From Klebsormidium nitens (Eukaryota; Plantae; Klebsormidiophyceae): a stretch of DNA of 64,000 nt. Both the position numbers and the translations under genes were made by a program. The DNA is taken from assembly GCA_000708835.1 (NCBI GenBank), contig DF237348.1, forward strand, positions 21,639 to 85,638. Direction: 5' to 3'. The notes beneath the pieces are model-generated. The model ran no database searches, was not told the DNA's origin, and saw nothing but the letters and a program-made list of their open reading frames with translations. Shown piece by piece: positions 40,334-64,000 of the stretch (position 1 is the first letter of the stretch; every line of letters begins with the position of its first letter).

Positions 40334-43300
40334 ATGGAGGCCGTGGCCTCTCCGGCCCTGCACACCCAGGCAGCAGCTGCAGGGTTCGGACAGAGGACGC
40401 ATGGTACGCACGTGCAAACGCAGGTTCGGACACAGGCCGCCCTGCTGCCTCGGCAACAGAGGCATCCAAAGCTCCACAGCTTTGGCTCCGCAAAAAGCAT
40501 TGCAGGCCAGAAAGTTTGTGCAGAGTCTGAGGGGTTTAGGAGGGATAGAAAGGGGCGGGGGCATGCCAGGGCAGCGGGGACGCAAAGTCCGACAAGGGAA
40601 AGGCCCTCAGTGAAAGAGGCGGCCGAGAAGATCGTAGGGGGTCTAGGGGGCGGGCTAGATGAGGTTAAGCTGGATGAGGTAGCGGGGCAGGTAGCAAAGG
40701 AGACGGGGAGCGAGAAGGCGCAGATCAGTGAGTTTTTGAAGCGGGAGTACAAGGCAGGGTTTGTGACTGACATCCAGTCAGAGAGGATTCCGAGGGGGTT
40801 GTCAGAGGAGACAGTCAGGACTATCTCGGCAAAGAAGAACGAGCCGCAGTGGATGCTCGACTATCGCCTGCGGGCCTACCGCCAGTGGCTGAAGATGGAG
40901 GAGCCACGCTGGTCGGACAACAAGTATCCCAGGTAAGCTCAATCCTCATTTCTTTCCCACAGCTCACCTTCGTATTTTAGAGTTCAGCACTCTGAAAGAT
41001 TTCTTTCTATCTTGTCGTCGCTTTGAGTTTTTTTCTGCTGAAGATTTTGGTAATGGTGGCTGGCCCTTTACAATCTGTACCTTGTCTTGAAGCAATCCTA
41101 CTCTAACATAAGTGTCTGGATGAAGATCCCACATGGACGACGCTCCTTTTCTTTAATTGGGTGAGCTCTATAACGGGCTACAAGGGTGAAGGAAAGGTTG
41201 TCTGGCGTGCTCCACTGCGTGTGGCAGCTACGTAGTTGTTTGAATCGTATCGTAAGGAGTTTGTGATTTGCATAGTATTGAGGCTTTTGCTTATTCTTAA
41301 AGCTGCCTTTCACAATTGCAAGGCTGGTGCAACATTGAGATTAACTAAATGCTGTCGCATGTAGTAGCTCCATTGCAGGAGTGCTTGGCAATGTGCAGTG
41401 TGTAGCAGACATTGCTTGCTTTCAGAAACTTTGGAGATCTGACTTTCCGCACTTCGATGTGCAGAGGAAATAGCTCTGCATATACTGGAGTTACCAACTT
41501 GTCCTTCCAGTATTTCACATGGAGTGATCGAGCGAACCCTACTTCTAGCTGATTTCCTTCTCTATACCATCATTTTGCACACGTCCCGAAAGGAGACAAT
41601 GCTGTTCGTCTAGTTTGTTGTCTAAGTGCGCCGGTTGCTTGAATTCTCCCGAGCATATTCTGTTGCTGGTGGTGGCTCTATCTTGAAAAGGTGCACTGGT
41701 GTCCCTGAAAAATCATTGAATTCAAGATTGCAAGTATCTCCTAATGAGCTGGGCTCCTTAAAGTAGAATCCAACGTCCTTTTTTGACCCTGGGTGCTTAA
41801 TAGCATCTAGACGCTGGCAAGCGAGCCTGCTCCGAGCTTGTTCTCTGGAGAACTATTCACCTGTGGCCATTGGGGATTCCTTGTCTGCCTCATCCTAGTT
41901 CAGGGTGTCATTCCCCCTCTGCTTATGGTCCTTTGACCAGCCTCGGTTCGCCTGCTCATTTTGCCCCATCCTACAATTACAAAAGAGAGTCTTCATGGTG
42001 TTCTGCGTGAAGGCTCACAAGGAGGACATGAAGGCTCTTCTTCACAATTGTCTGCTCCCTTTCCTAGCCCTCTGATGGTCCCCCCGCCCTCGTTTCGCCC
42101 CTGCATTTGCACAGGTTGTCTACCAAGGAGCTCTGCAGTTGAGATCCATGAACCGGCATTGCAGCTCCTCGCCCCTAGATTGCTGAGTGAAACTACTTCT
42201 CATTGAGGCAGAAAAGTCCAAATGAAGAACTTTTAGAGCTAGTTTGCCTTCACCCCCTCAAGCCCCATGACTCAATTGTCCCCTTTTACCAGCTTCTATA
42301 TTCATATTCTGAGGTTTAGGAGCTACGCACAGACCATGGCAGAATGCATTGTCAGTTTTCCCCCCTTGCTCTATCTGCTGGCCACACAATTTCCGGCCAT
42401 TAAATTGGCTCTCCCTTTAGCCCCTGCTCGTTTCAACCACTCTTGTGTGCAGGTTGTGTAGCAGAGAATAACGTATCATTAAAAGGGGAAGAAGAGAATG
42501 CTGTGCCATTTCAATCCTTCAATTGTTGCCTGCGGACTCGTATTTGCATGTATGCAGGTTTGATCACAAGGACGTTGTACACGGTTCCAAGCCACGTTGA
42601 TTGGGCAGCTGCCTCTTTTTTATTCCAAAAGTTTTTGTTGCAACTACTTTGCGACGGCATATCTTCCCTACTTATTTCACCCCCCAAAAAGGAGACACTA
42701 ATATCCCCCCATTTTCCATGCAGGATTGACTATCAGGACATTGTGTACTATTCCGAGCCCAAGAAGAAGGACGTCAAGGCGAGCCTCGACGAGGTGGACC
42801 CCGACCTGCTCGCGACATTCGAGAAGCTCGGCATCCCGCTGTCTGAGCAGAAGCGCCTCTCCAACGTCGCGGTTGACGCCGTTTTCGACTCCGTGTCCAT
42901 CGCCACGACGTTCCGCAAGGAGCTGGCGCAGGCGGGCGTCATCTTCTGCTCCATATCCGAGGCTGTCAGAGAGTACCCGGATCTCATCAAAGAGTACCTC
43001 GGCAGCGTCGTCCCGCCGGGCGACAACTTCTTTGCGGCGCTCAACGCGGCGGTCTTCTCGGACGGCTCCTTCTGCTATATCCCGAAGAACGTCGAGTGCC
43101 CGATGGAGCTCAGCACGTACTTCCGGATCAACGATTCGGACACCGGGCAATTTGAGCGCACGCTCATTGTCGCGGAGGAGGGCAGCAAAGTCAGTTACCT
43201 CGAGGGGTGCACGGCGCCGTCGTTCGACACGAACCAGCTGCACGCGGCGGTGGTCGAGCTGTACGCGCACAAGAACTCGGAGATCAAGTACAGCACGGTG

Positions 43301-44854
43301 CAGAACTGGTACGCGGGCGACGAGGAGGGGGTCGGCGGGATCTTCAACTTCGTGACCAAGCGCGGGCTGTGCGAGGGCAAGAACGCCAAGATCTCGTGGA
43401 CGCAGGTGAGAAATCTGTTTTACCAATTGTGTCTGATGAGGGAAGAGCAATAGGGAGGCGGCCAAGAAGGGCTTCTCAATCTGTCTGGTTAGGTTTCAGC
43501 AGTCTCGTGTGTTTGTACACACGCATGTGTGGCGGTTTTAGGGGCTGGCGGGACACTGAAGGAACCGGTCAAAGGGATAATACAGGGGGGTCGGATTAGA
43601 AGGAGTGTGGCAATCAACAGCCATCACGTGCTAATTGTGTGCTAGCTCTGGCTCAATCCTGCTTCTGCATGTCGTCAGCATGTCGTCAGGCTTTTGAATG
43701 TGACAAGTGGTGGGCGCCGGGGCGGGCTACCCCTGCTCCGCTTTCGTGAGTGTAGTCATTGAGGGCTACTCAATCTGCTTCTCTCACCCTCTTCTCTTAG
43801 ACCGGAGTAAGGCAGCGAATCCGGTTCTTAACCCTTTCCAAACCCCGCTTTTTAACCCAGGTCGAGACCGGGTCCGCCATCACGTGGAAGTACCCCTCCG
43901 TCGTCCTCAAGGGCGACAACAGCATCGGCGAGTTCTATTCGGTCGCGCTGACCAACAACCGGCAGCAGGCTGACACCGGCACCAAGATGATCCATGTCGG
44001 CAAGAACACGCGCAGCCGCATAGTGTCAAAGGGCATCTCCGCCGGGAACTCGGTCAACTGCTACCGGGGGCTCGTCCAGGTGGCGCCGACGGCGCACGGG
44101 GCCCGGAACCACTCGCAGTGCGACTCGATGCTGATTGGCGACCAGGCGGGGGCCAACACGTACCCCTACATTCAGGTACGGAAAAGATGGTCAACTTCGA
44201 CGGGTCGAGTATGAGGTCTTAATCCTGGCCCTTGATTTTGGTCTTGATCGTGGCCTAGACAAGGAGGGGTTTGCGTAGAAGTTTCTGGTCGTAGCTGGTC
44301 GCGTTGGTTGCCAGATTGAAAGGCAACGGCTTCCTCTTCCTCACTTGTATGGAGCTTGTCAGGTTGAAAAGTAGGTTTGGATATCTGTGACTGTGCTAAG
44401 CAGCTGCCGTGCGGAAGAAGATTCGTCTATGCACATGCACCAGACCGCAATGTATCAGCACTCTTGAGTGCAGATACTTGTCCGACCCTCCGACTCACAA
44501 TCCTGAAGCTCTTTGGATGCTCGGAAGTCGTGTGGCGTTTCTTCAATCCTGTCTGCTATTGTTTATCTGGTTGACCACGAGCTTTGCAGACCAATCAGAA
44601 GCAAGCTGGCTGATTGTGAAACCCGTTCTCTACAGGTGAAAGACCCGACGGCGCGCGTCGAGCACGAGGCGAGTACCTCCAAGATCGGGGAGGACCAGCT
44701 CTTTTACTTCCAGCAGCGGGGCATCGAGGCCGAGAAGGCCGTGGGCATGATTATTAGCGGCTTTTGCAGGGACGTGTTTAACGAGCTGCCACTAGAGTTT
44801 GCCGCCGAAGTTAACCAGCTGATGAGTCTCAAGCTGGAGGGCAGCGTGGGATAA
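40334..44854 (+). CDS. SUFB: Plastid Fe-S cluster assembly scaffold SufB (NAP1/ABCI8), 4 exons (40334-40932, 42724-43405, 43860-44175, 44636-44854)
   Basis: [10 protein letters not shown]...[130 protein letters not shown]. Confidence 0.97.
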
Positions 44855-46969: not shown

Positions 46970-48991
46970 TTCTTCTCAAACAGGAACCTGCTCAGAAGAA
47001 AGCGGGTATGCAAGGTAAGATGGTAAGCACAGATTGGGGGCTAATAGCCGATTGTATTCCATTGTTGCTTAATCACAGAGGACCTGGGTAGCAACTCTTT
47101 AGACTGTCTACGCCAGACAGAAAATCAACCACCTGATCAGAGTGTACTAGTATTGTAATCGTGATGAAGGACCTGTTTCAAGGGCAACTCGGAGGATTGA
47201 GGGGGGTCGCCTTTTCACATGCCGTGAGTCAGTTGGAGCATCAGAAATCATCTTTCTAACCAGATTGAGTGTTCCAAAGTGCAATTGTCCAGTGTCCGAT
47301 CTGAAGCCAAGTTGGTTGTCGAAAGAACCACGTCATCCCCTATATCTCAATGAAAGCGAACCCAATGGTCATAGTAAACCTCTGATGCGCCCCGGCGGCA
47401 GACTCATGAAAGCTGCGGCAGTCGAGCGGCGCCTGTGCTTTGCCTCGGCGCCCATACACAACAAGTGTCAAAAGTGTGCAGCACTTCCAACACATTCACG
47501 TTTCACACTTGCTGTATCGTGCAAATGCTGCGCGATTGTGGGCCTCCAGAGACCAGAACCATTCCAAATCTGGGAAATGATCTGGTGCTCTGTGCCTAAG
47601 CTCTACGGGTACCCACCTGACGCTGCACGCGCTTGATTGTCGTCGCCCCCCTGCGAGTTTCTGTCGTGATATCTGTCGCGAAATCGTGCCCCAGGGAAGA
47701 AGGTCTACCTATGCAGATTCAACCTGAAAACAAGGACTAGCTTCAGCAAGGACAACCGCTTTCCGTGTCCCTTTTAATACCTCCATTGGCATCATCCCGT
47801 TCCATTGCGCATGGCATTGACGTTCTTCTGTTTCTTCTTTGAAGCCTCGACTTTAAATTTTGTTTTGAGCTCAAGCTGACGAAGGCGCGCGCTAGGCAAT
47901 TGCCATTCCGGCCGCAGTGACTTGCGTTCCGTACCGGAATGCTTGGAGTCCGGTCGGTCGACGCTTCTCATACGTTGCTTCCGGACTCGGTGCGCGGAAC
48001 AGACTCGACGGATCAAAACCCTCTGCCGAATGATCCCTGTGCGTCCGTCCGTCTGGCGGCCCGCGCGCCGCGCATATATAGCGCGCACTGCGGCATGTAG
48101 TAACGTATACGTCAACCGTAATCTGAGGGAATTGAAGGGGAGCAAGGGCACAAGCGACATGCAGCGATTCGGGCCCTCTCGCTGTTTCAACGCGCATGGG
48201 CCTTTGAACTGAACCTACAGTGATACAGTACCTAGGTTTTCTAGCAAAAAGAATGGCGGGCCAATTCAAGAACTTCAACATAATCATGACTATCATGGGA
48301 GGAAGCGCCGTATACCTAGGAGCTACCATGGCAATGGGACAAAGCAAAAGGGCCCTGGCGCAAAGCCCTGCCAAAAGCGTCGGAATTCTTTACTGCTGAA
48401 AGGAAAGCGATCCACAACAGCGATTCGTTCACGACTGCTGAAACTTCAGAGACGCTTCTCGTATTGTTTACGAGAAGCACCAGCAGAGGCACGCAATGAG
48501 TAACCCACGTCGCCTCCAGACTGCGCTTGAACGGCTCACTACCCACTCTCTTTCCAATCAGATATGCAGGAAGACGGCAGGGAGGACCTCAGGAGGCAAA
48601 GAGCAGGTGGAGTCTGAGGGTGAAGAATGAAGGTATGTTACAGCATCTAGGGCTAGAAAAAGCAGTCGGTTTCGCATGCTTCGGCCTGTTGGCTTCACAT
48701 GATTCCTGTTGCTGTTGCCGCATATGTGCTCATTCTTCGTTGCTTCATCAATTCACATAGAAGCATGTAGATGAATCTCGCATGCTTCAAACTTTTAGTC
48801 CGTCCCCTTTATCCAGGCAACGAAGGAATGATTGAGTGGGCAAGGGCAGTCGTCAAAGTCTGGTGGTCGAGCGAGAACCGAGTGGGTTGGTGAAGTGTTT
48901 ATTATGAAGATTCACTAGTTTATAATTGTTCCAGAACCCGTTCACTGTAGGCTCCGCCGGATTGGCCTGTACGTTGAAACGGATGCTTAAC

Positions 48992-49267
48992 TCAATCCCG
49001 TAGAAACGAAGTATGCTTGCGAAGATGAAAGAAAGAAGGACTTCGATTCGGGTGAAGGACTCCGCTCGATGTGAAGGACTCCGCTCGATGTCCGAGATCG
49101 TTCATCATGTCCGGCCCAAAGTCTCCAGCCGCATATACGGTTTTAAGTTGCCTGATGTAGACAGACACCGTTGAATCTGATCTATTCGGCGGAGCTCCAC
49201 GGAGAACCTTATCAGGAGATTGGACCTTCAGTTTTTTGCGTATCTCTGCTTCGAAGCTGGAATCCAT
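48992..49267 (-). pseudogene. Truncated second ORF resembling the N-terminal domain of virus-type tyrosine recombinases
   Basis: RSDSTVSVYIRQLKTVY parallels RTESSTEQYLKGIHLLW of the neighbouring ORF. A 19-bp tandem duplication (49052-49089) shifts the frame. Confidence 0.35.
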
Positions 49268-49291
49268 CGCCGTGAAACCGCCTCGTTGTTA

Positions 49292-50145
49292 CTAATCTTT
49301 ATAGATATTTTTTGTGAGATACAGACGTCTTAAAGTCGATCTGGATTGAAGCGCTTTCCATTGTACTGGATCTTACCCAAGAACATTGACCAGTTGCTAG
49401 CGGTCATAACCGTCTGCGGCTGAGTGACAGAAGTCAAGAAGTAATCTCGAGGTATCAATCGAAGGGTTCGATGAAGATACTTGCTCAGCATCTTTGTTAG
49501 AGGGATTCGATCCCCGTCTTCGAAGACGAGTTTGTAATCTCCCTTGCGTTGTGAGGTCTGCAGCAAATAGCTTGCACCCTCGATCTGTTGGCCCTTCCGC
49601 AGGATTGGAAGCTCGTGCAATTTTACCCGACGACGATGCTCCTTACTCAGAAGCATATGCCATTCGAGGACGAGATGCCACATACAGATCTTCACCTCCT
49701 TAGGAGTGAGATCTCGATTCATGTCTTCGAGACTCAACTGTCTGACCTTGCGTGCGAGCTTCTTTCCGAATGTTTCGACCTCTTCAACGGTCATCTCTGA
49801 TGTGGCGTCCGAGGTCTTGGTCTCAATCTTTCGTTGAGCGGACTCCTTCAGAGCCTTGTTTTCCTTCCGAAACGGCTCATAGTAGGTTTGATAAGCCTCC
49901 GCATAACCGAGTTTGCGGCAAATAGCAAGAAAAGGGGCTAAGCGAGTACGCCTGCTTCCAGGGTTATCATAGCGCTCTAGAACAGCTGCAACGATCTTCT
50001 GAGCCTTACTCTTTATCCACGAAGGGTCCTCGGGCATTTTATCCTCGAAAACCATGTTCCATAGAAGATGAATCCCCTTGAGATACTGCTCTGTGGAACT
50101 CTCGGTCCTAATCCCATCAGCTAAGACCTTCCGTAGAGCATCCAT
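49292..50145 (-). CDS. Tyrosine-recombinase-like protein (Polinton-like-virus/NCLDV type), catalytically degenerate, one frameshift near 49330
   Basis: Intronless. N-terminal STEQYLKGI...W...KIVAAVLERYDNPGSRR. C-terminal SYLL...IPLTKMLSKYL...YFLTS...MTASNWSMFLGKI..GKRF, then LRRLYLT in the -1 frame, comparable to the LRHxYIS box. No catalytic Tyr segment follows. Confidence 0.5.
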
Positions 50146-50299
50146 AGTTATCACCCGTCTACGATGATGCAAGAACATATTTTTATAATGTCTTCCATTT
50201 CGCAACAAGTTATTTCAAAAAGGTCGGTCACAATAAAATGACATCGAAACCTCTCCTAAACGATTACTTTTTTGAAACTGCGTGCGGGGGGCCGAAAAT

Positions 50300-50327
50300 T
50301 GTTGAGAAATCTCGAGATTTCTCAACA
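50300..50327. promoter_or_regulatory. 28-bp perfect palindrome in the AT-rich divergent intergenic region of the virus-like module
   Basis: TGTTGAGAAATCTC/GAGATTTCTCAACA is self-complementary. A second palindrome, TAACTAGTTA, lies at 50331-50340. Function is unknown. Confidence 0.6.
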
Positions 50328-50515
50328 GAATAACTAGTTATTTAAAAAGCACTTGACACTTTTTCACTGTCTCTCCGCCTGCGTTTCACACCATATACAA
50401 TGTATAATATTGCTTGTAGCAGAGATTGTTGAATTTGCATAATATGAAATGCATTAGGGGGCGGGATTATTTTGTTCGAAACTATCATGACAAGTTGCAT
50501 CAGAGGCCAGTCGAT

Positions 50516-51013
50516 ATGGAATCCACGAAACGAAGCTTTCGGGTGATTGCTGCCTACGATGCGAAGGGGAATGATGCGCTTGCTCTGGTGAAGGATACAC
50601 GACTCGAGATCGACGCCAACAAGGGGCGCGTCTGTCAGGCAGGAGCCCGCGCAGGGTCCCAACTCTTTCGGACACAGAAATGTCAGGGGAAAAAGGTTTC
50701 CCTTCCACAGAGGGTGGTGGTCCTTATAAAAGAGACTACAAGAGGTTCAACAAATAAAAAGTATGGGTACTCCGTCGAGATCGGTCCGGTCAAGAAGTGT
50801 GACCGCCCGACTGGTTTGCCATTTCAAGGGACGTTTCAGAGCATAGCAACAAAGATGGAAGTCGAAGACATCGAGAATATGAAGCTCCGAAAGAAGTCTT
50901 CTAAGACGATTAAAGCCACCCAGAAGCCCAAGGCTAAATCCACCCGGAAGAAGCCTGACCCAGCAAAGACAACGGAATCAGTTGATTCCAATTCCGATTC
51001 AGACTCGGATTGA
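50516..51013 (+). CDS. MC1-like (archaeal/giant-virus non-histone chromosomal) DNA-binding protein with Lys-rich and acidic tail, 165 aa
   Basis: Intronless. SFRVIAAYD...GRVCQAGARAGSQLFR...VVVLIKETTRGSTNKKYGY...RPTGLP follows the MC1-family pattern (QAAxKA...IxLRETTRGSxKKxYxY) of giant-virus proteins. Confidence 0.65.
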   Translation: MESTKRSFRVIAAYDAKGNDALALVKDTRLEIDANKGRVCQAGARAGSQLFRTQKCQGKKVSLPQRVVVLIKETTRGSTNKKYGYSVEIGPVKKCDRPTGLPFQGTFQSIATKMEVEDIENMKLRKKSSKTIKATQKPKAKSTRKKPDPAKTTESVDSNSDSDSD

Positions 51014-51557
51014 TTGCGTCATGGAGATCCGGTCCTGAGTCCACCGTTTGAGAGCGCCATGTGGCGGTCAGGACATTTGGTGTCTTAGTCAGAAGTTGCC
51101 TTCAATGGATTGCAGAGTGTAGCATGGCGACTCCAATCAACTTTCCGATTTCTTGCCACGTCAGCAAATTCGAGTCCGGAAGCTAGTACACATGCCCGCC
51201 GATCTAGAAAACACATCGATGAGCACCATGACACGCGCATTTGCTTACTGAACTTGATTGCGTGCTAACACCCTACTCATCAAGGACTACACAATTTGTC
51301 TATCAGAAGTGCTTAATCTCAAGACGAAATATTGCTCTTCCTAGCATGCGTAAGGGACGCGAGATCAAAAACTACTCCTATCCCCGCTATTGTGAACATG
51401 CTACCAATGGGATTCCGATTTGGAACGAGACAACAAGCAAGATATAAACTGGTCCACACCATCCTAGAACACTTTCGACTCATCGCCAAATGCCATCTGC
51501 AATGCGCGCACCACGCACACCACAAAGATAGCCTATTCAAATCGCTCGACTTGCACC

Positions 51558-54500
51558 TCACACTCGAGCAGCATCGAGCGCGTGCTCGAATCCCATAACC
51601 GCCAAGAGCTCCCTAGCCATGGCTGCCATCTGAGGAGGGTACATATGCCGCCCAATCTCGTTTTTGTCGTACTTGAAGTCTCGGTCAACCACTTGCTCCA
51701 GGAAATCGAGGGCGTGGATCGGCTTCGGCCCGAAGGTTTGCAAGAACTCCTCGCTAAGGTATGGCACGTCGTAGAACCGTGCCAGCTGAAACTTCTCCAT
51801 CTGCACTAACTCCCCCTCGCGATGTTCGTTTCTTTGGGACCGCCGTTCAATGTCGGCGAACTGGGCTTGCGAGATGTTAGGGGCGCTGATCATCTGCTCC
51901 AAGAGATACTCGCCCCCAAAAACCCCTTCTTCCGAGGGGACCGGGTTCACTTCGACCGCCTCTTCGTCTACGTTCTCGACGATGACGTGGCCGTCCGCCC
52001 TCAGCAAGTCTGTGAACTCCTGGTAGAAATGCGTCTGTCCGTTGAACATCTCCTTCTCGTTGTGAGCGAGAAGACGGGTTATTGGATGCACACAGTTCAG
52101 CCCGCCCCTTAGATTCTGGTTGAGGAACCACTGGTAGGTCTCTTCGACCCCCAGCCTTGCCTTGCTACCCGACCTGCTCATCTCCATCAACGACCCACCC
52201 ACTGACGGCCCCGCGGGTTCGGCGGGCAACCAGATGCCCTCCTGGAGATAGCACAGGACCCGTGGATTCTCCAACTTCCGTACACGGCCCTTCATCTGAT
52301 TGAGCCCCCGAGGGTGGGTGCTCTTCAGGCAGATGTACAGGAACATCTGGTGAAACCAGTCCTGGTTGAAATCCACGCCTGCTTCGACCGTGGGGCTGAT
52401 GATTACAAGCTGTTTCCGCCACTGCCTGTTCACATCCTGCAACCCTCGTTTGACTGCACCGTCCGAGTGCCGAGTGATGATGAGATCTGATCGCTCTCGA
52501 CCAGACCGCGCTCCTCGACCGCCGCCCCCAACTCTCGCACTTTTTCTGAGGACATGCTCACGATATAGACGTTGCGCCCAGCCCCAAGCGCCTCGAAAAC
52601 CGCCCCCTCCCACTTGACAAGCCCCTCGGTCTTGCCCTGAAGGAACTCAAACTCGAGGGGCCTCTCTGGAGCATGTTTGTTGACCACCACGGGGGAGCAG
52701 GATATCTCGTTCATCGTTAGGAACTCAAACGTCCGTTGCCCCAAATGCCCGTCCAGGAAGATGATCCGCCGCGCTCTTTTCATCAACTCGATAAGGAGCT
52801 GAATGACTCTGTGCCTCTCGCGAAGCGTGTCCGCCGACAGATGTGCCAAAATCGACTCGCTCTCGTCCAGGACGAGCAGGTCAAACGAGGGGGCGTCCTC
52901 GTCGTCTTCAGCAAGCAGCCCGGGCAAGCTGTCAGTTTGGACGATGACGCGGGGATGGTGTTCCCGGTCGGCGAGGGGGTGGATGAAGCGGTCGGGGCCG
53001 AGCATACGCCCATCCGCCTGCTTGAGATCTCCGTAGTGGGAGAAGCTCTGGTGCTTGCCTGCCGCGTCGAGAGCTTGCGTGCAGCGATAGGTGATCATGG
53101 AGACCTTCTTGAATCGTGAGTCTTCGGCTAGAAGAGCCGCAAGAAGGGTGCTCTTGCCGCTCCCCATGGGGCTCCTGATCGACAGATTTTTGTACCGGCC
53201 CTCCAGCCACCTGCACAAAGAAGTGAGATAGAGTCTTTGGATCCGTCTTCCGAAGCCGGCCGACTGGCAAGTGATGCAGCAATATTCCTTTCCTAACATA
53301 TGGCCTACACCTTGCAGATGGCAGAAGACTGGATTCCTTATTTCCCATGACAAGGTGTGGGCCCGTTCAAATGTTTTAGCCACTCATTTCAAGCCACTCC
53401 AAACCCACGAATCTGCTTCTGAACCGGCCCAGCAGCCACTTCTCCTCACAGCTATCCATAGAGGACCTGGCCTACACCTTGCAAATGGCAAAAGGCTGGA
53501 TTCCTTATTTCTATTGACAAGGTGTGGACCAGAGGCAGGGCACGTGCCCAAAGTCGGGTTTTGCCAACCTCGGCCCGGTGTCCGGTCGGGCTTGCTTATG
53601 GCCTACACCTTGCAGATGGCGAAAGACTGGTTTTCTTACCAGCATGAAAAGGTATGGCCCCGTTCACCAAACCCTGAAAGTGGGGGACCAGCGACAAAAC
53701 AAAAGGACTCCACCAGAATGTCAAGTCGACCATTAAAACCGAGACTGAAACCGAGCGTGTACGAACTCACTTGTTCACGATGTCATTGAAGACGACCTTG
53801 TCCGTCAGAGGGCGGACCCCGGCGCGAATCAGCTGCAGGTCCATGGGCGCGGCAGCCAGCGGGTGTCGATCCAGGTACTTCAGGTCGACCTCGACAGCAC
53901 CATCCTTCCAAGTTTCGTTGTCCACCCAGTAGGGCCCAAGGTACTTGGCCGGCAGGTTCTTGCAGCAGACACCCGTCTCCAGATCGACCCGCTCGCTGCT
54001 GCACACCGCGAACACGGCGTTCCTCTCGCGATCCGCGACACAGAGGATGTCCCGCTCCCCGGCATGCACGTGCCCCGAGTAGCACGGCTCGCTCCGATCG
54101 TGCCAGCTGAAGTTCAACGCGTTTGCCGACCCCCTGCGGTACGCCGTCGGGTGCAGTTTCTGGATGAGCTCCGTGCACCGTTGTACCTCATACATGCTCG
54201 CAGCTCTGGGGTTTAGGTGGCCTGGATTCTCTGGCCTCTCGCGCGCGCGCACCGCTCGAAACACGACGTCAGGGACCTTGATCATTTGAACGTGGTCATC
54301 GAACCAGGTGATGCAGGCGTCCGCGTACGGCTTGCTCTCGTCCAAGGGGATCAGCCGGCTCTGAGGGTTAGAGGGTTTGGAGCAGTAGGGGAGTCGGATC
54401 CCCCGGTTCCTGGTGTAGACCGACTGGTCGATCAGCTCGGCATAACGGTTGGGCAAGTGCTGGCCGAGCTTTCTCGCGAGATGCCCCGCTCCTTGAGGGT

Positions 54501-57500
54501 CCGCCGGGGGCGCCAGGTTGGAGCGGTAGACAAACTGGGGGGAGTGGGAGGAGACGACTAGGTGCAGGCTGAACTTGCCGCCCGGCCCATAGTCGCAGGG
54601 GATCCAGTTGAAGGCTTCCTTTGGAAGCTCGATGCCGTACTCCGAGCGGAAGATGGCCGTGATTTCCTCCTCAAAGGCCTCAATGACCGTTTCGAGGGAC
54701 TCTCCCTCTGGCAGGCCCCCGTCTCGTTCCAGATCCAGGTACGGCTTGCAGGGACACCCCGCTTTGATGGCCTCTTCCAAGTGAGGCTCGCCGCGCAGTT
54801 TGGGGTAAGCCGAGGGCCAATCCGGGTAAGACCCGAACTCCCGGGAGGGACGCAGGCGACGGATCTCGACCTGATGGCCGAGCACTTCCCCGTAACGACG
54901 GCAGCAACCCTGCGGCCCGTTCTTCGCGTCCTGGTAGTCGACCTTATCGTCGAACTTGCGCTTGGCAAAGAAGAAGGCGCCCAGCTCCGTCTTCTTGATG
55001 GTCAGCAACTTCCCGCCGTGCTCGCTGTGGACCACAATCTCGCCGGGGCGCAATCGAGGGTCCGCTGATGAGGCATCCTGCACGAAAGAAACCAGACCGA
55101 GTCACTGCTGGGAGACGTACAGCGGCCGCGGGAATCCGTACTTAGAGAAGCGCTGTTCTGAAGAGAGGCAGAATCTCATGTCTTTACACCACAGCAGCTG
55201 GTGCTGGTGCCGAATCTCACTAAGCTTGACCGCAATGATAAAGGGGTTTGCGTCAGGGTAAGGATGTTCCGAGAAGCAGCCTTGGGGCATTCGACGATCT
55301 TCGTCAGATAGACAAGTGCGGTGATACGAAGTCGATTGGCCGCCCCTGCTGAAGGGGTTCATAGAAGAATGGCCACTTCGAGGATTGAAATCCGGGCTCA
55401 CTCACTACTTAGCATGGTCCAGGTAGGTTACGTAAGCTCATGTCCGTTGACAAGGTACAAACGGGATGAGAATGTTTTCTGCACAATTGGGACTTACAGC
55501 TTCTACTAAAGCCCAGGTCGCGGATTGAGAAGGCGGGTCGAAGTCGGGGGTTGCGCTGGGCTCGCCAGCTTCTGCACCGGGGGGCAGGCTTGCTGCGCTA
55601 CTGAGATGGTCGGAAGGGATCCCTTGGAGCCGCTGCCGTACATCTTGGCCCCTCTCAAGTTCCTGCAAAATCGCGAATGCTGGAATCAAACGCTCACAAT
55701 CGAGCCTGCCCTCGATTTTCAGAACACCGCTTGCTGTGGCCTACACCTTGCAGATGGTAGAAGACTGGTTTCCTAATTTCTAATGACAGTGTGTGGACCA
55801 GATGAGGACCAGAGGCGGGGCACGTGCTGTGGCGAGGGGCAAAACTTATGGCCTACACCTTGCAGATAGCGCAAGACTTGAATTCCTTATTTCCATTGAC
55901 AAGGTATGGACCAGAGGCGGGGCACGTGCACACAGTAGATTTGCCAACCGCGGCGTGCGGTCGGGCTTGCTTATGGCCTACACCTTGCAAATGGCAAAAG
56001 ACTGGTTTCCTTATTTCCAATGACAAGGTGTAGACCAAGTTTTTAAAGGAAGAGACGGGCCCTCACCCACCATCTGCAATTTCCACGAGCTTGCATTGCA
56101 TGGTTCAGCCGGGCTTTGTAAGCTCAGGTCAAGCGAAGAGTTTGACGGAATCGAATGCCTTTGCACGGTCGGAACTTACATCTCCAACTGAAGCGCAGGT
56201 CGCGAGTCGAGAACGCGGATCGAAGTTGGGGGCTGCGCTGGGCTCGCCAGATTCTGCAACGGGGGACCGGCTTGATGCGTCACTGGAACTCTCTGCAGGG
56301 ATCCCTTGGAGCCGCTGCTGCGCATCCTGGAGCCTCTCGAGTTCCTGCGTAACGTGCACACTGGATCTAACACTCGCATCCGAGCTTATCCTCATACCGC
56401 TTGCTTTGGCCTACACCTTGCAAATGGGAAAAGGCTGGGTTCCTTATTTCTAACAACAAGGTGTGGACCAGAGGCAAGGCACGTGCCTACCATCGATTTC
56501 TGCCAACCGCTGTGTGGTCGGGCTGGCTTATGGCCTACACCTTGCAAGTGGCAAAAGGCTGGGTTCCTTAATTCTAATGACAAGGTGTGGACCGGAGGCG
56601 GGGGAGTGGGCGCCCACCACGCCCATCCGCGCTCTGGCTCGAGCTTGCGTCCTAGTCCGACCCAACACGTCGGACCCAAGGCTGACACTGATTTTTGATG
56701 CAGTGCTTGACCGTGTATGCCTAACCGCTCATGATCAGTCCTGACACCCGCCCGACCATGCATGCCAAGCCCGCATGCCTGACCTTTAAAAGATCTATGA
56801 AAGTCTCTTAACAACGCAGCATGTGCGTTCTCTGGTACCGCCAGCCTCACCTCAGCCTGCCCAAGGGCCTCGTGTGGACTGTGCTGGATCGACTGCCGCA
56901 TCGCGCTGTCGAAGTGCCTGAAATCATAGGAAGCATATGGGTGAAAACATCAGCGATTATCGTAAAAATTGAGACGATTTGCTGTCTCGAGGGACGTTTC
57001 TGCAGCTGATCAGTCGACCTGCACCCGCACGCACAGACACGACGAGTCATTCAAGAGCAGAGGCTCACTCGCCACCCTGCCGGTCCTCCTCGCCAACTTC
57101 GGCCACTGTCACGTCCATGCCCGAGCGCTCCCGCAGGGCCTCGGCCGCGACTGCCACTTGGGCGGGTCGATGGCCCCCTCCCTGCACCTCAGGCATCCGC
57201 CGCATCGTCGCCTGCAAAACCAGCGAGTGCGTCTTTTCCATCCGATCTCGAAGGTAGCGGCTTTCTCTGCCTACGTCTAGATTCTGCTTTCTAGACGATG
57301 CTTCGACATCGGAGTCAGATGCAGGTAAACAGCAGAAAACAGATCAGCATTTTGGGGAGACCAGAGGCGGGGCACGTGCCCACCGTCGGTTTTGCCAACC
57401 GCGGGGTGCGGTCGGGCTTGCTTATGGCCTACACCTTGCATATGGCGAAAGCCTGGTTTCCTTATTTCCAATGACAAGGTGTAGACCAGAGGCTCATGCC

Positions 57501-60500
57501 TACCATAGCCATCCGGCTTGAGCTTGCGTCCAAGTCTTACCCAACATGTCGGACTCAAGCCTAATACTGATATTGTTGCACTGCCTGACCCTGCATGCCT
57601 GACCCCTCATGATCGGTCCTGACATCCGCCTGGCCCTGCCTGCCAAACCCGCAAGCCTGACCGTTGACGAATTATGACTGTCTCGAACAATAGCACGTGC
57701 TTTTCTCTTGTAACGTCAGCCTCACCTCAGCCTGCCTGAAAGCCTCCCGTGGGCTGTGCTGGACGGACTGCCGCACCGCCTTATCGAAGTGCCTGCAACG
57801 ATCGGAAGCATGTGGGTGATAACCTTGGCGATTAGCGTGAAGGACGTTTTGCTGTCTCGAGTACGTTTCTGCAGCTGATCTGCACCCGCACGCACGGACA
57901 CGACGAGTCATTCAAGAGCAGAGGCTCACTCGCCACCCTGCCGGTCCTCCTCGCCGACTTCGGCCACTCTCGCGTCCACGCGCGAGCGCTCGCGCAAAGC
58001 CTCGGCCGCGACTGCCTTTTGGGCGGGTTGATGCAGCCCTCCCTGCGCCTCAGGCATCCGCCGCGCCGTCGCCTGCGAAACGAGCGAGTGCGTGTTTCTG
58101 TCCGATCTCGAAGGTGGCGACTTTTTCTGCCCATGCCTAGCTTTTGTTTTCGTAAGATGCTCCAATATCGGAGTCGAATCCAGATGAACGGCAGCAAGCA
58201 GATGAGCATTTAGGGGAGATGTGCACGGAAGGCTGCATTTGGCTGCAAGGGATTCCAACCGCAAAAACGCAAAGCGACAGCACTGACGAGTGCGCCCGCG
58301 AGGGATGCGAGTCGCACTCCTATATCAGCCGGATGAGTTCGCACCTCCTGCCTGTTTTGATGGGGCCTCAATCCCTCTAGAGTCCGGAAATGAGCCTCAC
58401 GAGCCGCCCAGATCTCCGCCCGAGCCGCCTCGTCCATCGGGGGAGGAATCGGCTTCGCACGCTTGCTGTGGGTGAAGGGAGAAGAAGAATTCGAGTCAAT
58501 GACGGGCCAAGACTCCTCAGCCACAGGCCTGCTACCCTGCAAAAAGCCGTCTGCACCAGGTCCCTATGTCGACTCGAGAGGCCTCTCTGTGCTCAGTGAC
58601 CCAGTCAAACTGATTCCTAACCAGGATCACTGGCAAAAGTCGAACCCGAGATGACGAATGAGGGGACAACGAGCTTACTGTGACGTCTTCTTCACCGGTT
58701 GACCAGCCTTTGGCACCACCGATCTTGATCCCCCTGCTGCTTCAACCTGGGGGGAAGCAATATGGCGGAAGGGTGGGCAAGTATTGAAGCTGTGCACGGC
58801 CACTGCCACGAGGAAGACCTAGGGCTCCCTTATGAGGTTGTCGAAAAGCGGCCGGTCAGGATCGAGCGAGACGTATGCAAGCGCCTCTACGCTAAGGAAA
58901 TCGTTTCACATCCTATCCTCCTACTGACAGTGAACGGTCTCACCCTACGAGCGAGCTCTTTTCTGGAACGAGGAAGGGTAGTTCTACAACCACGAGGGCT
59001 GGTTGGAGTACCTAATTTCGCACTGCTCTGCCGTGTGGGGAGTGAAGCTGAGCGGGACATCGAGTGGAAGGGGGCGACAGAGCCTCGACTGGAGTCGAGG
59101 GCCGTATCATCCTCGAGATGCCCATTTTCTGCACAAGAATGCGAGTGGACTCACCAAAGGTGTAGGCTCCGTAGCAGCAGAGCGAAGCTCATCGGCAGGA
59201 TGCGGAGGAGCGGGGGAAGGGCCCGGGTTCTGCATGACAAGAAAAAGCCTAGGGTCTTAGGAGCAACCGGCATGGATGTGAGGCAACTCTAGAGGATAGA
59301 ATATTACTGCAATGCAAGGGAGAGGCTCGGAAGTGGTCAATCGAAACCCGAGAGTAGCAGTGTCGTTCGCATTTCGAAACCTTCCTGGACAAGAACCCGG
59401 GACACAGACGAGGCACCTTTTCGAAGCGTTTACCTTTGCAGCACTTCAAATGCGTCAAGGACACTGTCTAAGTCTGGCGCAGACGACGGCTGATCTAGCC
59501 TCCGGCATCGAGAATCAGTAAATGGTCCAACTCACATGCGGCTCCCCAGCAGCGGACCCCGTGGACTGCTGACACACATCATGACCATCGCTTGTTGCCA
59601 CGCCAAGTTCCTGCACATGAGCGTCGAGCGAAATCCCCTTTTGCATATGGCCACACCTTGCAGATGGGGAGAGACTCGATGTCTGCACCGATGACGATGT
59701 GTGGACTAGTGAGAAAGAGAGAGAAGAGCGAAATGCCCATCATCGGTTTTGAATATCGCAAAGTGTGGTCGGGCTTGCTTGTGTGGCCTACACCTTGCAG
59801 ATGGCAAAAGCCTGGATTTCTTAATACCAATGACAAGGTCTAGACCCGATTCTCAAGAAGCATGACGCATGCCCATTTTCGGCTCTGAGAACCGCGGGCT
59901 TTCGTCGGGCTTGCTTATGGCCTACACCTTGCGATTGGCAGATTAACTTGGTTCCCTATCCCCAATGAAAGGTGTGGACCCGATTTTCGCCCACCATCTG
60001 CGCTTTGGATCGAGCTTGCATCGCCTGGTCCAAACAGATTTCGTAAGCTCAGGTCGATCGACAAGGTGCAACACTGGAAGTTTGACGAGACTGAGTGTCT
60101 TTGCACAATTGGGACTTACATCTCCAACCAAAGCGCAGGTCGCCGAATGAGAAGGCGGGTCGAAGTCGGGGGCTGCGCTGTGCTCGCCAGCTTCTGCATG
60201 GGGGGGTGGGCTTGCTGCGCTACTCAGATCCTCAGCGGGGTTCCCCTGGAGCCGCAAGCGCACATCCTGGCCCCTCTCGAGTACCTGCATGACGCACACA
60301 CCGGACACTCACATTCGAGCCTACCCTCATATTCCGCTTGCTTTGGGCTACACCTTGCGGATAGCAGGAGACTGGAATCCTTATTTCCAATGACAAGATG
60401 TGGACCAGAGGCGGGGCACGTACTGTGGGGAGGGGCTCGCTCATGGCCCACCTTGCAGATGGCAGAAGACTGAATTCCTTGTTTCCAATGACAAGGTGTG

Positions 60501-61660
60501 GACCAGAGGCGGGTACGTGCCCACCGTCGTTCTTGCCACGGCTGTATGGTCGGGCTTGCTTATGGCCTACACCTTGCAAATGGTAAAAGCCTGGGTTCCT
60601 TAATTCTAATGACAAGGTGTAGACCAGAGGCAAGACTTTCCGCCCAGCCTGGATTGCATTTGCAAGCTCAACATGAAAGTCGCGATGAGCCTGTAGAGGG
60701 CGGAGTGCCTAAGTTCTCTTGGATATTGCAGGCCACAAGAGCTCCTCGAGCATACCAACGAGCGCCTCACATGTGAGAATGGTTGCGGCGTTGGCACGTG
60801 CTCCTCCTCTGCCTCCTCTAACTCTTGAGAGAGATTCGGACGGCGTCGCTTCCTCTCGAGCGCCCGCCCTGTTAATACCACCCCACCAATGTCCTCCTCG
60901 AGACAAGAGGCTCCTTCTGGGCAGCGCTCGCCTTCACCGTTGGAGGACTGCAAAGACGACACGCAACAAGCCTGATGGGTGTGGACTTCATTCCACCATC
61001 AATCAAGCGTCACCAGGCGCCTTCCTGATGAGAATCCAGGATTGCTTCAGCTGCGAAGCACGCGTGCCTTAGCGGCACACCAGATTTAGCAACCCAACGA
61101 AGTCGCATCGAGACAAATTGCGTTGGCATCATGTTGCTCCTGTCTCTCAGCTTTTCGCAATCCAGTTCGTACCTTGCGTTTGCATTTGATTGACGGTGAT
61201 ACAGGAATCGGCTCTCTAAAAGCGCTGTTGGTAGACCAGTTGGCAACCGGAGAGGTGGGTGAATCACCCTGTACAGCACAGCAAACCCAGAAGTGGCTTG
61301 ACAGCAGAAGACACTGGTCAGTTTTGCATAAACGGGCACCAATGTTGCACGAGGCAGTTGCAAGAGAATGGGCAGACACCCTGGTGTAAATCTCAGACAC
61401 AGACTTTCAAGCCAACATAGTGCGTGCAGGTCATTTCGTAGGACCCAGAAGCCCACTGGACTGGGTTGACGCTAACCTCATTGTTGGGAGCCCTGTAGAA
61501 GCTTGCACCTTGTATGCTGCCAGAATCTTGATCGTCAAAGAAATCTTGTAGTGACTGTCCAGACTGAGATCCATCGACAGATCGATCAGCATACTCAGCA
61601 CCTTCGATGTCCTCTCCTTGGGTCCCTTCTGATTCTGACACATCACTGTACACATGAGCA
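51558..61660 (-). CDS. Multi-exon AEP primase-polymerase / UL9-type SF2 helicase fusion with a long repetitive N-terminal arm; one frameshift at ~52484; 5' end not found
   Basis: The AEP exon (55077-53771) has KPYLDLE, KFSLHLVV and LIDQSVYTRNRGIRLPYCSKP. It splices in phase (AA/G) across intron 53770-53211 to the helicase exon: SPMGSGKST, ITYR, FDLLVLDESES, IIFLDG, IISPTVEAGVDF, NQMKGRVRKL. Upstream exons have canonical GT-AG ends and compatible phases. Confidence 0.8.
53302..60625. repeat. 15 same-orientation copies of a ~62-nt hairpin in six clusters
   Basis: Consensus GGCCTACACCTTGCARATGGCARAAGRCTGGDTTCCTTATTTCYAATGACAAGGTGTRGACC. Starts at about 53302, 53469, 53600, 55738, 55850, 55975, 56408, 56532, 57426, 59649, 59785, 59919, 60345, 60445 and 60564. 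Confidence 0.93.
55498..60284 (-). repeat. Duplicated exon cassettes: A x3 (165 nt each) and B+C x2 (143+67 nt)
   Basis: A at 60284-60120, 56344-56180 and 55662-55498. B+C at 58072-57930/57792-57726 and 57211-57069/56917-56851. Lengths are identical, splice sites are intact, and flanking intron sequence is also duplicated. Confidence 0.88.
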
Positions 61661-62902
61661 GAATACCTGTGAGCATCTCAGCTTGCACTATACGTGAGTG
61701 CATTCAGACCTAGGCAGAACTAGACGCAAACATTTCCCCGCTGATCCTGCAACTCCGCAACTCTGCAACTCAAGTAGAGATTGACCACTAGTATGATATT
61801 TGGACCTGTTTTTGAAAACACATGCCTTTATAGTCACTCCGCTCTCATCACGCCCATCTCCCAGTCTGCAATTCTGATCCCAATCACTTTCCAGCCCCAG
61901 TGCTGTCCAGAAAAGCACTCACCTATCCCAAGGCAGGTGCATGTCGGAAGACATGGCAGCTCAGCTGGCATACGCAACCAGCCGCAACCAGCCAGCTTTA
62001 TGTGACCAGAGCTCCGTCAGGCTCACAGCCTGATCAGCTTCAGCTGCTAATTGTCAGCATCAAGTCTGCGCTTCACAGGGTTGACTTAGCTTTAGCCTAC
62101 ACTAGGTCTCAGTAGCATAAGACTTACCATGATGGCAGGCAGTATCTGGATTACAAAAGGACCATCGACTCTAGGCGGCGTGTCTGTAGGCCATACTCGC
62201 AGGCGTTTGGAAAGATGAGTGAGGATTGAAAAGAAGGGGAGTCCCGGAAAAGCTCATCTGCAAATTAAAGGATTGAAGCAGAAGATTGCCCCTTTACATC
62301 CCATGAGCACGCGAATTCAGTCGAACACTGTGCATGATCCAGTAAAGCTGCAGCCTCTGCTTTGTTGGCAGGCTGCTGCGTTGGCAGAAGCTTCCTAACC
62401 CTTCCAAACTGCTGCGTTGGCCGTCCGAAAACTGTCACCCTTTAGAAGGCAACCAACAAAGCGACAGGGCTGAAGCTGCTTGAGTCTTTGCTGCATTGGC
62501 CTGAGTTTCCAGAATCTGTTTGAGCTGAGTGTTCAGAGCTTCCAATACCTGCTGCTTGCGTTGGCCTTGTCAGGGCCTGATTCAGACTGCTGACTCAAGC
62601 AGGACTTTCGCCTTGCACTGAACGCCCTTTGTGTGCGCGCCAAAAAAAAAGCTCCCGCAGTGTGCTGCCAGCTGGACGCTTCGGATGCTGAAGTCGAGTC
62701 AAAGCCAGTCTTCTTGCAAGACCCTTCTTGCGCGCGCTGCTCGCGATCGGACGGCGAAGGGTCGTTCGGGCGACGAAACCTTCTGGCCTCGGCTTTTGCA
62801 ACCAACATCATGATCGAAGTCGAGTGCGAGGGCTGAGTGGCAGTGTGGAATGGCTCAGGCGCCGCATTCACTGGTCTCTGCGGGACGTCACTGGTGAGGT
62901 GA

Positions 62903-64000
62903 ATGGCGTCTGCCGCAGTGCTCTTCAAAGTGGCTGGGGCAAAAACTTTATGTTCGCGCGGGCAGGCAGACATTGCCCCTGCAACGCCCCAGCGATTCGC
63001 TTTCAGGACACTTCCTCCATCTCTGTATGAGGGATTGAGGCTGGGCCGGTTTCATTCCGACTACAGGGTGGGGTCAGGATTGAGGCGCTTCTCGCCGAGG
63101 GCAGAGATTCCCCGGGAGGGAGCAGAGTCTACCGGAAGTTCCAACTTGGTTGACAGCGTGCCTCAGGCTGAACAGGTCAAGGATGAGGCACAGGCTCTCA
63201 AGTCGAGCATCAAGCGTGTGGAGAAGGAGATTGACGATGTGAAGAACCAGATTAAGACTGCTGCGGCTGCAGGCAAGAGCACAGAGTTCTTGCAGCGGGA
63301 GAAGACCGCGCTGCGGCAGAAGGAGGCCGCGCTGCGGCAGAAGGAGGCCGCGCTGGAGCAGCGACTGACCGCGCTCGTGCAGGCGGAGGTGGAAAAGTTG
63401 AAGCTGCAGCAGACACCAGGTACGTCTCCCGTCGTCTTACGCATGGAGAGCGGTCTCCTTGGAGCAGCCCAGCAAACCAGCGCACAGATGTGAAAAGACC
63501 ATGAGCGGCGCTCTGCTGCCAATGTTGTGCTGCAGGCAATTCCCCTGCTGCTTGTCGATGTTTCGCAAAGAGAGTGGTAGGGCACACCGCACAGAGGGTA
63601 TTCTATCTGTCTTTGCCTGCAGTTCAGGTGTCTGCTCAATGAGCCATGGCAATCTGTCTCGATTGTTGCTGCTTAAGAAGGGTTTTTGTATCTGTGTTTG
63701 CCTGATGTTGGTGTGTTGCTCTGTGGGTCATGGCAACATGCAGGCGGAAAGGTTTTGCGGTGCAGAGAAACTACTTCCAACCTCATAGCCTGCTTAGCAT
63801 TTGCAGTTGGCTTATCCAGTGACTGCGTGTGGAATGCTGACAGATAGCTTCTGTCGTGTGCAGCAGCGGGGATTCCAGACCCTGCAGTCTTGGGTAAGTC
63901 TTTGTACCTGTCTCCACCTGTTGGCGCTGTGTGCTGAAGCGCTTGTCGCACCTGTCAGCATTGTCTTCTATTTGATCGCTGTTTCAGGTGCTGTTTGACT
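62903..64000 (+). CDS. First exon (62903-63419) of a coiled-coil protein with a transit-peptide-like N-terminus; presumably continues past the window
   Basis: MASAAVLFKVAG... then IKRVEKEIDDVKNQI...LQREKTALRQKEAALRQKEAALEQRL, including a 21-nt tandem repeat. The exon ends at the CCAG/GTACGT donor. Confidence 0.55.

Follow-up and report, generated by a model that had tools for sequence, protein, structure and literature searches.

A spliced giant-virus-type primase-helicase gene in Klebsormidium nitens and the added front end that holds most of its introns

How does a replication gene of virus type come to be divided by more than a dozen spliceosomal introns in an algal genome? The question is raised by a 64,000-nucleotide stretch of Klebsormidium nitens contig DF237348.1 (hereafter the window, numbered from its first letter), in which a primase-helicase gene lies on the minus strand between 61954 and 51558. 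The original prediction held that this gene contains at least 13 spliceosomal introns and that the replicase, expressed through the host spliceosome, had gained and kept them. On balance we consider it probable that the gene is host-transcribed and carries 16 GT-AG introns, that its primase-helicase part likely derives from one capture from a giant virus, that the 15 upstream introns likely entered, and increased in number, together with an added front end, and that a frame break in the helicase is likely recent.

Splice joints and gene model

Splicing was mapped over 47500-62600 by comparing a DNA run (X1) with three runs of RNA type, each from a different study (X4, X9 and X12), whose RNA nature is a software inference, no run being recorded as RNA. 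The three belong to 16 presumed-RNA runs from four studies, each sharing 0.43-0.57 of words; four more runs under the same species label share 0.00-0.04, which may reflect a different strain or silence. The joints examined were the 15 listed out of 21. Fourteen of these read CT..AC on the plus strand, that is GT-AG on the gene strand; 13 occur in all three RNA-type runs and one in two, and none of the 14 is present in the DNA run. Junction-spanning RNA reads had been proposed as a check of the predicted exon path, and these joints provide such evidence in RNA-type contigs, bearing out the claim of expression through the host spliceosome in runs of three studies. Ten joints coincide exactly with predicted introns, and two further introns that are not among the joints listed (61173/60947 and 53771/53210) are matched by loose contig ends, 9-17 letters long, that agree with the predicted junction letters, those at 53771/53210 coming from X4 and X12. 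Twelve of the 14 predicted introns are confirmed exactly in this way, and all 14 are GT-AG as had been stated, while two need correction. The supposed intron 59536/58746 is two introns, with exon 59229-59155, previously a mere candidate, lying between them and used according to the RNA-type joints. The predicted acceptor 58528 gives way to 58465, 63 nucleotides shorter with the frame unchanged (58528 could sit among the six unlisted joints).

The corrected model comprises 17 coding exons and 16 introns on the minus strand and encodes 1,271 amino acids. Its 5' end, which the original prediction had left open, is now settled by exon 1 (61954-61923), with the ATG at 61954 and an in-frame stop immediately upstream, and by exon 2 (61645-61477); the joint between them (61645/61923) occurs in all three RNA-type runs, and the transcript start lies 5' of the ATG. 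A GTAAGT near 62128 (62050-62130, minus strand) may mark a further intron in the 5' untranslated part, RNA-type depth running to 62600. At the other end, RNA-type contigs run unspliced through 51558 and reach 51088-51243, giving a 3' untranslated stretch at 51557-51088. Intron 4 (60255-60798) is covered by RNA-type contigs at depth 13-36 in two runs, compared with 5-6 for the other listed intronic contigs, and intron retention is possible there. The fifteenth listed joint has 10 variant letters between its two sides and most plausibly represents a paralog with a splice at the exon 6/7 border; this variant junction is seen in all three RNA-type runs, and variant-letter DNA contigs span the exon-intron borders of introns 2, 3 and 4. 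A paralog shares intron positions with this gene at these introns and at the exon 6/7 border.

Within 55100-61500 there are 319 open acceptor-frame combinations, and many such combinations arise by chance, so that GT-AG threading is weak evidence by itself and it is the RNA joints that carry the splicing claim. This abundance is what speaks for the exon path, or the frame break described below, being an artefact of chance threading or assembly. Such a reading is refuted by the 14 listed junctions in the RNA-type runs (unless those runs are not RNA) and by the position of the break within identical contigs of four runs, and we find it scarcely credible.

A virus-type replicase behind an added front end

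Exon 16 (55077-53771) is identified by structural modelling as an archaeo-eukaryotic primase of the PrimPol/herpes-pox clade, with its motifs intact and activity predicted. The model, built from a 38-sequence alignment, reached a predicted local distance difference test score of 82.9 (a single-sequence fold only 35) and superimposes on human PrimPol (7jl8) with a Z of 20.9 and a root-mean-square deviation of 2.4 Å over 210 aligned residues; a profile match to PrimPol has an E of 1.7e-15, at an identity of only 18-19%. The fold also matches pox D5/E5 and herpes primases, and the best matches in a viral structure library are giant-virus helicase and origin-binding proteins. Residues D115, S170, H172 and D217 are invariant in 38 of 38 rows, and position 117 is D or E in all of them; we take these to be the catalytic DxE/D, SxH and third-aspartate motifs. 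A Cys/His domain, which likely binds zinc, follows the primase fold. The first part of exon 17 (53210-52484) encodes a UL9-like superfamily 2 helicase with Walker A and B, as assigned by Pfam and profile matches, and intron 16 (53770-53211) lies at the primase/helicase boundary, as had been claimed.

Among named proteins, six from K. nitens lie closest to exon 16 (55-90% identity), and the seven Klebsormidium rows of a 62-row quick tree form one clade with support 100, so that the gene would belong to a clade of seven or more copies in this genus. Relatives outside the genus are mostly proteins of about 1,100 amino acids from metagenomes and Tetrabaena. The nearest environmental loci are gene-dense and mostly single open frames, with T5orf172, peptidase S74 and PriCT-2 among their virus-type neighbours, and no intron-rich relative was found among the nine closest. 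Three of these nine have a helicase break (L081-L083), and L084 has an in-frame insert at the domain boundary; in L081 (L081:5430-5830) the helicase frame changes at a short direct duplication, and in L083 the protein tail is present three times. Distant relatives lie on giant-virus contigs at 21-29% identity, and viral-contig scans with the window primase, alignment A1 and, from the neighbourhood described below, an alignment of the YR-like open reading frame (ORF) and the MC1-like ORF found no relative. A single acquisition from a giant DNA virus is the likely origin of the primase-helicase part; tree and relatives suggest that an intronless gene of about 1,100 amino acids, already joining primase and UL9-like helicase, would have been captured in the Klebsormidium line.

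Fifteen of the 16 introns fall within the first 576 residues, a low-complexity front end rich in Ala, Ser, Glu, Pro, Gly and Arg, and intron 16 is the sole intron inside the virus-derived part. Relatives outside Klebsormidium lack this front end: the primase motif was found in 30 of the 35 and lies there at residue 48-129, compared with 206-881 in the six K. nitens paralogs. Exon 2 encodes an acidic stretch with the motif E-[DS]-[IL]-E-G-[AV]-E, present in five of the six paralogs and in none of the other 35 relatives, and exons 3 (61268-61173) and 4 (60947-60771) hold the basic clusters KRK and RKRRR, which we presume to resemble nuclear signals. The remainder is made up of exons 5 (60284-60120), 6 (59610-59536), 7 (59229-59155), 8 (58746-58679), 9 (58465-58345), 10 (58072-57930), 11 (57792-57726), 12 (57211-57069), 13 (56917-56851), 14 (56344-56180) and 15 (55662-55498), several of which are copies of one another: exons 5/14/15, 10/12 and 11/13 are 79-88% identical and equal in length. 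By blastn, introns 10 and 12 are homologous end to end, and 11/13, 5/15 and 9/11 at their ends. The closest paralog, P0001, carries the same front-end units, two of each. These repeats indicate that the front end grew by tandem duplication of frame-keeping exon-intron blocks. As 15 of the introns sit in this block-duplicated part, their number is no clock of intron gain, and the claim that the replicase itself gained and kept its introns stands for a single one, the rest lying in the added front end and several being mutual copies. Introners were considered as a source of the front-end introns and rejected, since introns 10/12, 11/13, 5/15 and 9/11 have duplicated exons beside them. One paralog, P0004, has a ubiquitin domain in its front end, so that different front ends appear to have been fused to the same replicase.

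Paralog differences were tallied at 21 exonic sites, among 40 sites shown of 172; 7 of 12 listed differences are silent in exon 16 compared with 1 of 9 in the front end, which shows little sign of amino-acid constraint. The ratio of nonsynonymous to synonymous substitution rates between duplicated front-end exons ranges from 0.28 to 1.63 over 22-55 codons and is too noisy for an inference of selection. Third-codon GC (GC3) is 0.75-0.81 in this gene and 0.73-0.92 in the exons of a nearby host-type SufB-like gene, a host-like composition that fits long residence in the host.

The introns also contain an imperfect hairpin of about 62 nucleotides, with 15 same-orientation copies between 53300 and 60627 (minus strand) confined to introns 4, 5, 11, 13, 14 and 16, the last holding three; no copy was found elsewhere in the window. 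The eight copies tested are more stably folded than shuffled sequences (z -2.9 to -5.6). None of 16 pairs shows compensatory change, Rfam returned no family at gathering level and three weak matches, and the hairpin profile had no match in 159 loci; the exact pattern has 15 scattered matches in viral contigs, which look like chance. Intron 16 shares with the upstream introns only an internal block (nucleotides ~110-475) that bears the hairpins, and not its ends, which suggests that sequence moved to or from intron 16 within the gene. The window also holds 11 copies of the palindrome GCACGTGC, presumably a G-box core, where 1.25 are expected; eight lie inside the gene (53540-60801), several of them in linkers between hairpins.

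UL9 binds inverted repeats flanking an AT-rich spacer, and by analogy the hairpins might, as a bold candidate reading, be self-binding sites or origins for the UL9-like helicase. Extended to the family, this reading would describe a self-copying element that has no capsid, is spliced throughout and relies on a primase and origin-binding helicase from a giant virus; intact copies, P0003 for example, would act in trans on the ~62-nucleotide repeats as candidate binding sites or origins. We regard this extension as quite improbable.

The broken helicase and its interpretation

The predicted exon path had been described as free of stops, with a product of about 1,500-1,600 amino acids. In fact it contains 14 stops; its last exon, 53210-51558, has 6, 14 and 13 across the three frames and is open in none. 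A tblastn comparison with the paralogs locates a frame switch at 52484, and the RNA-backed frame ends at a stop at 52432-52430, after 1,271 residues. The second half of the helicase (52483-51558) is well conserved in a different frame, with 308 open codons behind the break; PF02399 scores 46.6 bits for the first part and 25.5 for the second (cut-off 20), and the two helicase lobes do not share one frame in this copy. Contigs spanning 52374-52822, from the DNA run and from each of the three RNA-type runs, match the window without a single differing letter or gap, which rules out an assembly error as the source of the break. Conserved columns are kept at 40 of 46 positions behind the break and 55 of 61 ahead of it, identity to the paralogs is equal on both sides, and the break is therefore likely young. 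The helicase also ends some 130-170 residues short of full-length relatives: eight of ten extend 127-197 residues past the stop at 51558, and no match to the missing C-terminal tail was found anywhere in the window. As part of the explanation that we judge probable, this copy would make the primase half alone, with a predicted product of 1,271 amino acids; its stop lies in the last exon, and from general knowledge the mRNA would escape junction-dependent decay.

A single lesion followed by so long an open, conserved stretch could suggest a recoding site, at which ribosomes slip near 52484 to yield a longer primase-helicase. Paralogs P0003, P0004 and P0005, however, pass the site in one frame, no slippery heptamer is seen by eye, and the tail would be missing regardless, which makes recoding very unlikely.

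The intact primase half raises instead the possibility that the primase is truly domesticated, a host-kept PrimPol-like re-priming enzyme for which loss of the helicase was tolerated or favoured. Every primase motif is intact, the listed paralog differences are more often silent in exon 16 than in the front end, splicing is seen in three studies, and P0001 is annotated as ending shortly past Walker A. On the other hand, the helicase is as conserved behind the break as ahead of it, so that it was under selection until recently. The recorded ends of P0001, P0002 and P0006 may reflect annotation or the limits of contigs, and the site is covered in a single species; we consider domestication of this kind unlikely. 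The original prediction called the element nuclear-adapted or domesticated; spliced expression is borne out and host-like GC3 fits long residence, and domestication is unproven in view of the broken helicase and the little constraint on the front end.

The explanation that we prefer, capture followed by fusion to a multiplying front end, would proceed as follows. After capture, fusion behind the acidic, basic-cluster-bearing and likely disordered front end would have brought a host promoter and help with nuclear import, its anatomy being evident and its role presumed; the front end then expanded by block duplication, one intron came to lie at the primase/helicase boundary with the hairpin block of the upstream introns, and the gene would have multiplied to seven copies or more, with turnover; in this copy the helicase tail would have gone first and the reading frame of the helicase after it, the lesions being observed and their order conjectural. 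Several points weigh against this account. The donor is a tentative one, as the relatives closest to the gene lie on unclassified metagenome contigs in which no capsid gene is recognised and named giant viruses are only 21-29% identical, and the tree is of a quick type with long branches. The RNA status of X4, X9 and X12 is guessed, their contigs are silent on expression level and strand, and the gene product is known at transcript level, not protein level. The DNA run may be the window's own source and all runs may come from one laboratory strain, so that the break near 52484 is possibly private to that strain.

Genomic setting and known systems

Two intronless ORFs lie beyond the 3' end of the gene. 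The tyrosine-recombinase-like (YR-like) ORF (49330-50145, minus strand, 271 amino acids) belongs to a multicopy family; in the Atlas its similarity to viral and to recombinase clusters is 0.97 and 0.93, it has a 96% match in K. nitens, and 11 of 11 aligned members are short and end at the same place. The start of a 98-codon ORF at 48992-49288 (minus strand) resembles that of the YR-like ORF by eye and is perhaps a second fragment. The ORF at 50444-51013 (plus strand) belongs to a small conserved family with 14 relatives and an ETTRGS motif; its putative MC1 label found no match in Pfam, PHROGs, NCBIfam, the Atlas or PDB. The segment with both ORFs (48004-51027) is covered by the DNA run and by none of the three RNA-type runs, a weak hint of silence; DNA depth is 197-314 there and 14-31 at 51028-55059, a difference not to be read as copy number. 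On the left lie host-type genes, namely a spliced SufB-like gene (42404-44854, plus strand) and, further away, DOG1, UbiA and synaptobrevin domains; a small spliced host gene is seen at ~46.8-47.7 kb (minus strand), between the SufB-like gene and the virus-like stretch. About 1 kb upstream of the ATG, a divergent ORF (62903-63493, plus strand) encodes a coiled-coil repeat with no family above the cut-off. Pfam scans of 85 ORF stretches, extending 2 kb beyond the 5' end of the gene, gave host-type domains and no hallmark gene (capsid, polymerase, packaging ATPase), a method that may miss remote capsids.

This neighbourhood bears on whether the family serves as replicase for a mobile element lacking a capsid, or for a still-active latent virus, in which case this locus would be one damaged insertion and intact copies would copy the element, including the YR-like and MC1-like genes. 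The recombinase-like multicopy ORF 1.4 kb away, the variety of front ends among seven or more copies (the ubiquitin domain of one included), and P0003 with its full-length helicase and tail are all in keeping with this, as is the finding, in the accessible part of the punuivirus report, that introns mark latency genes (10.64898/2026.10.09.758095). Yet the six inverted pairs in the window include no terminal inverted repeats such as a Polinton-like virus or other integrated element would have (the right end may fall outside), the host-type SufB gene is close on the left, and the copies are merely 55-90% identical in protein. Moreover, the GC3 of both ORFs is 0.56 compared with 0.75-0.81 in the replicase, and neither has a match in 174 loci around viral relatives at E 0.1, so that membership of one shared element is not demonstrated. 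For the same reasons the contrast that had been drawn between the intron-rich replicase and its intronless neighbours is no test of the replicase's history. We hold the mobile-element explanation to be possible and on the whole doubtful.

Under the preferred explanation of capture and front-end fusion, the locus offers a well-supported case in which a viral replication enzyme became a host-style, transcribed 17-exon gene in an algal relative of land plants. The route is fusion to a front end that multiplied its own introns, not slow intron gain in the viral part, which is a warning against treating the number of introns in an endogenous viral gene as a clock. The presence of intact and broken copies in one family makes domestication of a viral primase versus an undescribed mobile element testable.

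Among known systems, the gene shares the order of primase domain and PF02399 helicase with the UL9-like superfamily II helicases of giant viruses (Bodo saltans virus, Marseillevirus and Catovirus origin-binding proteins), a type listed as NCVOG0024 in the part of PMC3493329 available; it differs from them in its 576-residue front end, 16 introns, broken helicase frame and lack of a tail. With human PrimPol it shares the primase fold, the DxE, SxH and third-aspartate motifs and a Cys/His domain behind them, whereas it is fused to a helicase and the relatives of its clade are virus-type and not cellular PrimPol. No paper was found that links this type of protein to Klebsormidium or to endogenous viruses of algae, most subscription papers lying outside the search. 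The accessible text of PMC5294986 reports giant-virus genes in the Klebsormidium genome; these nucleocytoplasmic large DNA virus insertions concern the same host genus and five core genes, and that text does not mention the present family, which its supplement may list. In the punuivirus, 61 of 506 genes have introns, 2.5 on average and linked to latency, according to the sections available of 10.64898/2026.10.09.758095, which contain 0 mentions of a primase or helicase. Virus-derived genes, GT-AG introns and host-like transcription in a green alga are common to both systems; here, in contrast, no large viral block is seen, and the 16 introns are mainly the result of block duplication in an added front end. 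Mirusviruses are intron-rich, with spliceosomal introns some of which share sequence (PMC12768974, accessible part); in the present gene similarity either enters the flanking exons or is an internal hairpin block, and so falls outside the introner definition given there. Insertions in Amoebidium include multi-exon KDM4-like genes (PMC11244446, as far as its available text goes), and the portion available of PMC13712841 adds nothing further. Introns in endogenous giant-virus genes are thus already known, and what sets the Klebsormidium gene apart is that its intron wealth is held by the added front end.

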